IMG/VR virus record: IMGVR_UViG_3300028392_002123
Length of the DNA stretch: 64,000 bases
Source of the DNA: a virus
Taxonomy: Duplodnaviria > Caudoviricetes
Direction: 5' to 3' (one strand)
Shown: piece after piece, positions 25,720-28,164 of the stretch
Layout of the letters: each line of letters opens with the position of its first letter
Numbering within the stretch: the first letter of the stretch is position 1
The notes under the pieces: generated by a model
Databases searched by the model: none
Seen by the model: only the letters and a program-made list of their open reading frames with translations
Told to the model about the DNA's origin: nothing
Program-made: the position numbers and the translations under genes

Positions 25720-25929
25720 TTACTTGACCGACATAGCGGCTTTGGTTTCAGTAATTTCTTTACGTCTAATTTTAATAGCCTTGCTCATTTCTTGCAAGGC
25801 TTTACGAGCACGACCTGCTGCCGCTTTAACACCTTTGTCAGTGAACTTAAAGTTCTCTGCAAGATATAATTCAAATTGTTTTACAATCTCTTCGTGATTG
25901 TTTACTACTGCTGTTGTTGTTTCGGTCAT
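25720..25929 (-). CDS. small basic histone H1-like (Hc1-type) protein
   Basis: KGVKAAAGRARKALQEMSKAIKIRRKEI matches the Hc1-like GNKAAGxRARK pattern. Confidence 0.65.
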   Translation of the reverse strand: MTETTTAVVNNHEEIVKQFELYLAENFKFTDKGVKAAAGRARKALQEMSKAIKIRRKEITETKAAMSVK

Positions 25930-26156
25930 TTCATTTTATCCTGAATGTAATCTACTAACTTTCTAAAGTTACTAAGAGCTGGGTAATCATCGTCTGGGAT
26001 TTCAATTTTGAACTCGTCTTCTAAGACAAAAATGATTTCCATGACATCAAGACTGCCAAGTCCGAGATCTTTCCATGTACCTGCTGATGTTATCTCGTCA
26101 GCCGATTTTTCTAATTGTTTTATTAAAACATCAAGTGTTTGTTCTTCAATGCTCAT
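25926..26156 (-). CDS. acyl carrier protein-like, variant GSL motif
   Basis: DLGLGSLDVMEIIFVLEDEFKIEIPDD; start at ATG 26156 (AAGGA SD); ATGA overlap with the Hc1-like gene. Confidence 0.85.
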   Translation of the reverse strand: MSIEEQTLDVLIKQLEKSADEITSAGTWKDLGLGSLDVMEIIFVLEDEFKIEIPDDDYPALSNFRKLVDYIQDKMK

Positions 26157-26157
26157 T

Positions 26158-26388
26158 TTATTTCCTTTTTGCTTCAATTAAAGAGATAAGATCATTCAAA
26201 TTTTTAATTGACTGTGCTTCGTCATCTTCGAAGTGTATATCATAAGTGTCTTCGATTTTCATAACTAGCTCGACTGTGTCCAAGCTGTCTAAACCAAGGT
26301 CACTCCATTTTTTTGCATTTTTAATTTCTTCAGCTGATTTTTTAAAATCATCAGTGATCATTTTTAAAATTTCTGTTTCTAAACTCAT
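26158..26388 (-). CDS. acpP: acyl carrier protein
   Basis: DLGLDSLDTVELVMKIEDTYDIHFEDDEA; canonical DSL phosphopantetheine site; acidic, 76 aa. Confidence 0.9.
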   Translation of the reverse strand: MSLETEILKMITDDFKKSAEEIKNAKKWSDLGLDSLDTVELVMKIEDTYDIHFEDDEAQSIKNLNDLISLIEAKRK

Positions 26389-28164
26389 TTATGCCTCCAC
26401 CATTTCTACATCTGTACTGAATGTTGTAAATCCATTTTCTTTGATAACCTGTAGAATGTTATTGACTCTACCTACAAGTTCGTCTCGGTGACTAATCAAA
26501 AATATGTTTTTATTTTGTTCCCTGGCCATCTTCTTAAGGATACCAAGGGCATTGTCAACTCCGTTTGCATCCATACCACTGTCAATCATTTCGTCGATGA
26601 ACAATAAATTAATAGGATGATTCAAACTTTCATAAACATCTCTAAATGCCCAACTTAATCCAAGAATAAGCCTATTGCGTTCTCCTCGACTCAGGTTATC
26701 AAAATCAAACTCCTGTCCTAGCTGTGTAATATCCACTTCTAAGTCACTTCGGAATTTAACTAAATGCGGTAAACTGAGTTTTTCTAGATAATGAGCAAGC
26801 CTATGATTTAAGTAGCTCAAATTTTGTTCGATAATACGTTTACGTACAAAACTATCTTTGGCAGTTAGCAATTTTAATAAAAATTCCTGATGTTCTAGTA
26901 ATTTAGTCAGCTTGTTCATAAGTTCAAAATTAATTTCTTCTAAAGCTGTATCTTTTAAGTGATCAATTTGCTCGATGTACGGATCCAAATCTAATGCTCG
27001 ACGCTCAATTTGATCCATGGCTGTTTCCAGTGTACTTTTGTGATTGACAGCATCGTCGATGTTATTATACTTGACATTTGGACGACGACCTATATTACCC
27101 AGTTTGCTAATAGCTTGATTAATTAGTTCAATCTCTTTTGTTTCGTTGACAAGATCTTTACGCAGAGATAACACAGCAGTTTGAATTTCTGCCATCATTT
27201 CTTCTTGCTTACTATCGTGAATTTCTTGACCACAAGCATGACATTGATGTGCTTCTGCTTTTGATTGTGCTTTTTCCAAATCGGAAATATTAGAACTTAG
27301 TCGTTTGACAGCACTTTGATGTGTGGCAATGTCTTTGTTAAATCTAGTCATCTGTGCATCTTGCTCTTTCCATAATGCCAATAGTTTATGGTTAGCAAGC
27401 TCTTGCTCGATGTCAATGTTTCTTAGCTCAGTGATGGCCGCACCTAGCTTTTCTATGTCTTCTTCTTGTTTTGCCTGCCATAGTCGACTGCGTCGTTCTA
27501 AATCTTCAATGCTGGCTTTGATTTTATTATTTGCATCACCCATGGCCTTGATTCGATATTCTTCTTCTTTAATCTCATCTTTGGTGCCTTTGATAAGATC
27601 TTTGAGTAGAACTGCTTTTTCACTGAGCTGTGTGATACCTAATAGTTGTTCAATGATTTCTCTTTGATCATTGGCCTTGAGACTAAGGAATGGCTCGGTG
27701 TATGTATTCAAAGCCGCAATATGTTTGAACATATCGTGGCTCATTCCAATAACACGCTCTATGTGTTCCTGTGTTTCTTTATTCTCGCCTTGTTGTTCTT
27801 CACTGTCTTGACTGTCAACTTGATTGTCGTTGATAATAAATTTTAGTACATTAGGCTTGCGACCTCGTTCTATTTTATAGTTAGTACCATTCAAATCAAA
27901 CTCGCAGGTAACTAACATATTTTTAGTGTTAGTCTTATTGATTAAATTATCCTTGCGAATGTTCGTCAGCGCATTGCCATACAGTACGTAACTTAGTGCG
28001 TTGACAATAGTAGTCTTGCCAGTGCCATTGCGACTGCCGTCTCCACCTAGGTCTAAGTTGTTACCTAGGACTAATGTTAGTCCATGTTGATCGAAGCGTA
28101 ATGCCTGTGTCACATTGCCCACAGACAAAAAGTTTTTAATTGTTAGATTTTTAATCTTAATCAT
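26389..28164 (-). CDS. gp46: SbcC/Rad50-like recombination ATPase (gp46)
   Basis: Walker A NGTGKT, zinc hook CHACG, signature LSRGE, Walker B LLFIDE, ISH. Confidence 0.95.
   Translation of the reverse strand: MIKIKNLTIKNFLSVGNVTQALRFDQHGLTLVLGNNLDLGGDGSRNGTGKTTIVNALSYVLYGNALTNIRKDNLINKTNTKNMLVTCEFDLNGTNYKIERGRKPNVLKFIINDNQVDSQDSEEQQGENKETQEHIERVIGMSHDMFKHIAALNTYTEPFLSLKANDQREIIEQLLGITQLSEKAVLLKDLIKGTKDEIKEEEYRIKAMGDANNKIKASIEDLERRSRLWQAKQEEDIEKLGAAITELRNIDIEQELANHKLLALWKEQDAQMTRFNKDIATHQSAVKRLSSNISDLEKAQSKAEAHQCHACGQEIHDSKQEEMMAEIQTAVLSLRKDLVNETKEIELINQAISKLGNIGRRPNVKYNNIDDAVNHKSTLETAMDQIERRALDLDPYIEQIDHLKDTALEEINFELMNKLTKLLEHQEFLLKLLTAKDSFVRKRIIEQNLSYLNHRLAHYLEKLSLPHLVKFRSDLEVDITQLGQEFDFDNLSRGERNRLILGLSWAFRDVYESLNHPINLLFIDEMIDSGMDANGVDNALGILKKMAREQNKNIFLISHRDELVGRVNNILQVIKENGFTTFSTDVEMVEA

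Follow-up and report, generated by a model that had tools for sequence, protein, structure and literature searches.

What would a large phage want with two acyl carrier protein (ACP) genes placed directly behind the gene of a DNA-repair ATPase? The question is raised by a 64,000-nucleotide stretch of viral DNA (IMG/VR record IMGVR_UViG_3300028392_002123; hereafter the window), which corresponds, in reverse complement, to part of a 340,358-bp JGI contig and comes from an uncultured jumbo phage of a lake metagenome. Large phages commonly carry orphan ACP genes, which are habitually labelled 'auxiliary metabolic genes' with no tested role. The present case stands out by a fixed junction with gp46, a copy number that varies between zero, one and two, an old split between ACP1 and ACP2 that involves a non-canonical motif, and a biosynthetic island without an ACP in the same genome. 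We found that ACP1 and ACP2 are real genes maintained by purifying selection. Comparison of related loci indicates that they are an optional cassette, dispensable for gp46, which is probably there for lipid chemistry and not for the DNA-repair enzyme, and our tentative proposal is that they serve the island in trans. The genes at the junction are the following:

26389-28164, minus strand: gp46, a Rad50/SbcC-type ABC ATPase with a coiled coil and a CxxC zinc hook (PF13476, PF02463; phrog_77, SbcC-like, 4e-108)
26158-26388, minus strand: ACP1, 76 amino acids (aa), AcpP-like, with a DSL motif (Ser35) (PF00550, 2.3e-10)
25926-26156, minus strand: ACP2, 76 aa, a paralogous carrier protein with a GSL motif (Ser35) (PF00550, 4.6e-10)
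25720-25929, minus strand: an Hc1-like (histone H1-like) small basic protein, 69 aa (PF07432, 1.9e-10; synteny)
25243-25677, minus strand: a SegE-like GIY-YIG domain protein, 144 aa (PF19835, 5e-34)

The original prediction, made from the letters of the window, was that two 76-aa ACPs abut gp46 with zero spacer, and the coordinates of the open reading frames together with the PF00550 matches bore this out. The gp46 stop codon TAA lies at 26391-26389 and the ACP1 ATG at 26388-26386, with neither spacer nor overlap, and a GGAGG Shine-Dalgarno sequence is located within the final gp46 codons. One base separates the ACP1 TAA from the ACP2 ATG (26156), and the ACP2 stop overlaps the start of the Hc1-like gene (ATGA). 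The tandem is not an assembly artefact, because six assemblies, which derive from several samples, share these 721 bases with 0-2 differences. A megablast of the locus against cultured phages gave no match, and IMG/VR lacks an exact 40-mer taken from ACP1; gp46 of the window is about 50% identical to gp46 of Pseudomonas phage PA5oct, Sinorhizobium phage Phosso and Agrobacterium phage Atu_ph07.

Is the position of the ACPs tied to gp46? The comparison covered 80 IMG/VR loci with gp46 relatives, plus loci from ACP profile and exact-protein look-ups. The cassette is hosted by a clade of freshwater, PA5oct-related jumbo phages. Within this gp46 clade, which has 100/99 support, two, one or no ACPs lie between gp46 and the Hc1-like gene, with a patchy distribution. 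Two were found in the window and in the L090, P0004, P0013 and P0019 contigs, one in the L005/L093/L094/L097 group, in L091 and in L009, and none in L004, L006, L007/L008 and L010. Outside the clade, no junction ACP was present at any gp46 locus examined, including those of PA5oct, Phosso and Atu_ph07. L009 (one ACP) and L010 (none) are sister taxa, and their gp46 proteins are 90.5% identical. Up to the gp46 stop the two DNAs are nearly the same, they become closely similar again after the first few codons of the next gene, and what separates them is exactly the ACP reading frame of about 230 nt. Such variants with zero, one or two ACPs among near-identical phages amount to a ready-made natural genetic experiment.

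Translational coupling of the ACPs to gp46 had been put forward. The zero-spacer arrangement is generic: in relatives without ACPs the Hc1-like gene starts just 1-10 nt past gp46, so it is the operon, not the ACPs, that accounts for the tight junction. A survey of the neighbourhoods of phage ACPs gave a divided answer: the ACPs are gp46-adjacent in the clade members that have junction ACPs, but at the seven phage ACP loci that are more distant, no gp46 homologue lies within 5 kb, and in three cultured jumbo phages (phiRSL1, CBB and Motura) the ACP sits amid unrelated genes. As for gp46 itself, all 18 relatives compared keep the zinc-hook residues H306, C308 and C311 unchanged. The pairing of an ACP gene with that of a coiled-coil, SMC-like ABC-type ATPase does recall AcpP and MukB of E. 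coli; unlike MukB, gp46 is of the Rad50/SbcC type with a zinc hook, and close relatives dispense with the ACP. The interaction of AcpP described in E. coli concerns the MukB joint, and SbcC and Rad50 are unmentioned (PMC8602292). A complex predicted from an 18-row gp46 alignment and a 13-row ACP1 alignment scored 0.01 in two runs and was counted neither way. Because of the copy variation, the L009/L010 indel, the generic tight junctions, the distant ACPs without gp46 and the Rad50-type hook, an obligate role of the ACPs as gp46/gp47 cofactors is unlikely.

Some further observations concern the surroundings of the junction. Between L009 and L010, synonymous divergence (dS) is 2.25 in gp46 and 0.55 in Hc1. 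Over the 4 kb from gp47 to Seg, dS shifts several-fold in L093/L094/L097 and in L009/L010, pointing to recombination mosaics with breakpoints near the ACP junction. The SegE-like GIY-YIG gene was considered as a mover of the cassette and set aside, as it is conserved in all relatives examined, whether or not they have ACPs. Its protein is 51-80% identical across L004-L018 and the gene acts as a fixed one, not as a mobile homing endonuclease; the PHROG 447 label for this family is 'NAD synthetase'. The Hc1-like gene trails either gp46 or the ACPs in every close relative, which sets a phage histone-like DNA binder beside recombination nuclease genes.

What kind of carrier proteins are these? Both ACPs exceeded the Pfam gathering cut-off of 20.8 bits for PF00550 (41.0 bits for ACP1 and 40.1 bits for ACP2), and they are 38% identical to each other across all 76 residues without a gap. 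With TIGR00517, the NCBIfam equivalog of housekeeping AcpP, they scored 64.5 and 59.3 bits and did not reach the cut-off of 70.45. The top PDB sequence matches of both were bacterial AcpPs. An AlphaFold2 model of ACP2 (predicted local distance difference test, 89.6) is a four-helix bundle in which helix II spans residues 35-49 with Ser35 at its start, and Foldseek aligned it to the AcpPs of E. coli and H. pylori with a template-modelling score of 0.86 and a root-mean-square deviation of 1.5 A. As far as sequence and fold can tell, then, both ACPs resemble AcpP, and they share with bacterial type II AcpP (PDB 1L0H, 9KA7_C, 5H9H) the length of about 76 aa, the four-helix bundle, the serine that opens helix II and the acidic helix II, whose patch is kept in ACP1 and ACP2 alike. 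They differ from AcpP in that they are phage-encoded, fall under the equivalog cut-off and evolve fast, in that the relatives searched have no fatty-acid synthase or phosphopantetheinyl transferase (PPTase) genes, and in that ACP2 has G or T where AcpP has Asp.

This last point bears on the attachment motif. The original prediction named a DSL serine as the attachment site, and this is correct for ACP1 but not for ACP2, which has GSL in the window and TSL in its four orthologue sequences. The motif serine is nevertheless invariant in all 13 junction ACPs despite an overall identity of 33-67%. In the alignment, the junction ACPs also differed from other phage ACPs by a loop 1 that is one residue shorter and by an invariant Trp28 at the aromatic position that precedes this loop; both traits also count among their differences from AcpP.

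We then looked at the selection that acts on these genes and at their descent. The ratio of non-synonymous (dN) to synonymous divergence (omega, by the Nei-Gojobori method) was 0.13-0.20 for the ACPs (about 0.15 for ACP1), 0.02-0.05 for gp46 and 0.04-0.4 for the small neighbours, and dN of the ACPs was 4-7 times that of gp46. At 93% gp46 identity, ACP1 is 64-67% and ACP2 53-54% identical. Orthologues of ACP1 with 61-70% identity occupy the same position in other contigs. In the tree, the junction ACPs all fall into a single clade (support 85/87) that divides into subclades of ACP1 (85/87) and ACP2 (100/97), which indicates that the junction ACPs are one family split into canonical ACP1 and non-canonical ACP2. 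Orthologues of both are present in L090, L292 and L294, so the duplication predates the split of the lineages of the window, L090 and L292/L294. A local duplication had been suggested before; the duplication is real but not recent.

Which pathway could the ACPs serve? The earlier statement that genes for fatty-acid synthase, acyltransferase and PPTase are missing from the window stands for the 20 non-structural open reading frames checked. These gave no acyl-related family, only matches to MazG-like, radical SAM/SPASM, DNA ligase, HNH, gp25, NUDIX and DUF6171 families, and phmmer over all open reading frames of the window did not find a third ACP. A candidate partner appeared elsewhere in a related genome. 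In G006, a 235-kb contig whose gp46 is 80% identical to that of the window, the one junction ACP is the sole PF00550 match, and a 22-kb island contains TauD, a GNAT protein, a PP-loop ATPase (SGGxDS), a second GNAT protein, an FA desaturase, a 180-aa protein and two further PP-loop-like genes, and additionally AspH-like oxygenases and B12-radical SAM enzymes. A desaturase, P0044, 71% identical to that of G006, is encoded on a 340,548-bp contig assigned to the phage of the window, and L304, a 5-kb contig that stems from the lake population of this phage, keeps the gene order of the G006 core (43-72% identity). Through P0044 and L304, the GNAT/PP-loop/GNAT/desaturase core can thus be attributed indirectly to the phage of the window; in a metagenome scan with the PP-loop profile, the contig of the window was not among the matches. 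No ACP gene lies within the island core in G006 or L304, and the junction ACPs and the island are about 190 kb apart.

Many similar islands do have an ACP. Among 80 related PP-loop loci, a desaturase lies within 6 kb in 71 and an ACP within 6 kb in about 27, and about 21 of these roughly 27 island ACPs are directly upstream of the PP-loop gene. In two loci (L128:4581-5378, plus strand, and L193:4994-5791), a GNAT-like protein and a C-terminal ACP share a single open frame directly upstream of the island PP-loop gene; this could be either a fused gene or two genes joined by read-through. The layout is complementary in G013 (gp46 64% identical), in which no ACP stands beside gp46 and the single PF00550 match sits among the island genes. 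In the gp46 relatives without ACPs, G001-G005, no desaturase was found in the 90-189 kb examined. As to enzymes that would prime or load a carrier, PPTase (PF01648) was not found in five ACP-bearing phage contigs, G006 included, and neither ANL ligase (PF00501) nor ketosynthase (PF00109) was found in G006, G013, G007, G015 and G016.

A protein family of about 208 aa without a Pfam match was also noticed in these islands. It follows the in-island ACP and overlaps its end in L134 (11200-11970, minus strand) and L138 (10962-11717, minus strand), and in G006 it occurs as two tandem paralogues (25661-26287 and 26284-26910). It may be an ACP-dependent enzyme.

From these observations, we propose that ACP1 and ACP2 act in trans as carriers for the phage island, primed and loaded by host enzymes; we favour this reading tentatively and hold it at somewhat less than an even chance. 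The ACPs would be co-transcribed with gp46 from a sigma-70-type promoter, host AcpS would prime them, the host fatty-acid synthase would load them, and the loaded carriers would hand their acyl chains in trans to the GNAT/PP-loop/GNAT/membrane-desaturase tailoring island. A role in trans is suggested because the island core has no ACP of its own, because ACPs stand in many homologous islands, and because of the complementary layout in G013; the pattern fits an island that lost, or never had, its own ACP. Host priming and loading are suggested because PF01648, PF00501 and PF00109 were missing from the contigs searched and the best match of the ACPs is the AcpP of type II fatty-acid synthesis. 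Among the options of the original prediction, that of acyl donors for a phage pathway encoded elsewhere is thereby the most supported one.

Known ACP-centred islands, with a PP-loop ATPase, GNAT proteins and a membrane desaturase around an ACP, have the same enzyme set as this phage and G006 (PP-loop ATPase, two GNAT-like proteins, FA_desaturase). Unlike them, the core here is without an ACP, its putative carriers being far away beside gp46, and no ANL-type acyl-ACP synthetase turned up in the five contigs searched for it. Thiotemplated desaturation cassettes such as JamABC also rank among the closest known systems. The gain from the comparative data is a concrete set of candidate partners, namely an island lacking the ACP that about one third of related islands have within 6 kb, and, if the link is true, it would provide a handle on the product of a widespread, uncharacterised phage island.

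Several points weigh against the proposal of carriers in trans. The link to the island, and with it the use of an ACP-bound substrate there, is one of association only between distant genes. G016 (IMGVR_UViG_3300027749_002876, 524,565 bp, L158; rated 100% complete) has the PP-loop/desaturase pair and no PF00550 match; a phage ACP is therefore no strict requirement of the island. Conversely, G008, G009 and G010 have ACPs and no desaturase, and the orphan ACPs of cultured jumbo phages stand in unrelated contexts, so phage ACPs also serve other purposes. In the tree, the resolution of which is weak, the in-island ACPs of L134 and L138 do not group with those of the junction, and given how short the proteins are, the tree speaks neither for nor against a descent of the junction ACPs from an L134-type in-island ACP. 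Finally, most contigs in the co-occurrence comparison are 15-66% complete.

Another way of reading the data is that the ACPs are generic auxiliary genes, that is, an extra AcpP-like carrier that sustains or redirects host fatty-acid, phospholipid or lipid A synthesis during a long infection, with no dedicated phage partner. We regard this as possible though unlikely. The best family match is indeed housekeeping AcpP, by TIGR00517 and by PDB sequences alike, PHROG 5934 is filed among auxiliary metabolic genes, and phage genome papers name ACPs as auxiliary genes without a functional test (PMC11705849, PMC13573597). ACPs without a partner do exist, in phiRSL1, CBB and Motura and in complete contigs without desaturase, and like those orphan phage ACPs (PHROG 5934/4154; phiRSL1 ORF083, CBB gp163, Motura gp339), the ones described here are stand-alone small genes of large genomes with no adjacent synthase. 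Duplicated ACPs have also been mentioned in Flavobacterium jumbophages (PMC13573597). The present case is unlike these orphans in being a tandem of old paralogues at a fixed post-gp46 junction, with zero, one or two copies and one non-canonical motif. A simple dosage role is insufficient to account for two long-diverged paralogues, one of which is without the Asp before the serine. Moreover, both proteins fall short of the AcpP equivalog, their dN relative to gp46 is unlike that of a strongly constrained hub such as AcpP, and close relatives manage without any ACP.

It is doubtful, to a greater degree, that the ACPs are host-directed mimics or decoys. According to this explanation, they, and most plausibly ACP2, would bind host partners of AcpP and alter host regulation instead of carrying acyl chains. 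AcpP is a hub that binds MukB, SpoT, IscS and SecA (PMC8602292), the acidic helix II patch is kept in both ACPs, ACP2 is without the DSL Asp in all five lineages, and fast protein evolution is compatible with a host-interaction role. However, the serine predicted to be modified is invariant in 13 of 13 junction ACPs in spite of their divergence, indicating that the prosthetic group still matters, omega is far under 1, and a candidate host partner was not identified.

Combining the two-paralogue structure with the proposal of carriers in trans gives a split thiotemplated pathway, in which two specialised carriers made from the gp46 transcript would feed the distant island, ACP1 being host-loaded and ACP2, with its T/G-Ser-Leu site, having another partner or another priming route, and the product would be an undescribed amide-linked unsaturated lipid of the infected cell. 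We consider this rather improbable.

The idea that the ACPs are cofactors of gp46/gp47 (Rad50/Mre11-like), in the way that AcpP activates the MukB ATPase, is appealing for their fixed position, directly behind gp46 and without a spacer in all relatives that bear ACPs, and for the AcpP-MukB precedent (PMC8602292), but it is unsupported and the comparison removes it as highly improbable, given the patchy two, one or no ACPs in one gp46 clade (100/99), the clean L009/L010 indel, the ACP-free gp46 loci of more distant relatives such as PA5oct, Phosso and Atu_ph07, the equally tight junctions elsewhere in the operon, a gp46 that is not of the MukB type and is strongly constrained, against ACPs that drift 4-7 times faster, and the ACPs of seven distant loci and three cultured phages that have other neighbours.

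The transcription of the ACPs, on which the proposal of carriers in trans also draws, involves the region upstream of gp46, where the following features lie:

29190-30047, minus strand: a gp55-like late sigma factor
28171-29190, minus strand: gp47, an SbcD/Mre11-type nuclease subunit (PF00149; phrog_100)
28170-28199, minus strand: a sigma-70-type promoter consensus, TTGACA, an 18-nt spacer and TATAAT (12/12), upstream of the gp46 ATG

The consensus at 28170-28199 is the likely start of a gp46-ACP1-ACP2-Hc1 transcript, and the promoter ahead of the ACPs appears to be of an early type. Both hexamers are kept in most relatives; they overlap the coding end and stop of gp47, so their conservation is ambiguous. 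Between 24400 and 30300, no terminator-like site was found on the minus strand, and the T4-type late motif TATAAATA was absent. The sequencing runs that matched the locus were DNA metagenomes only, with no RNA run listed.

Elsewhere in the window, between the baseplate genes and a DNA ligase, we observed a radical SAM/SPASM enzyme (37796-39085, minus strand) and a MazG-like (PRA-PH) pyrophosphohydrolase (37432-37812, minus strand).

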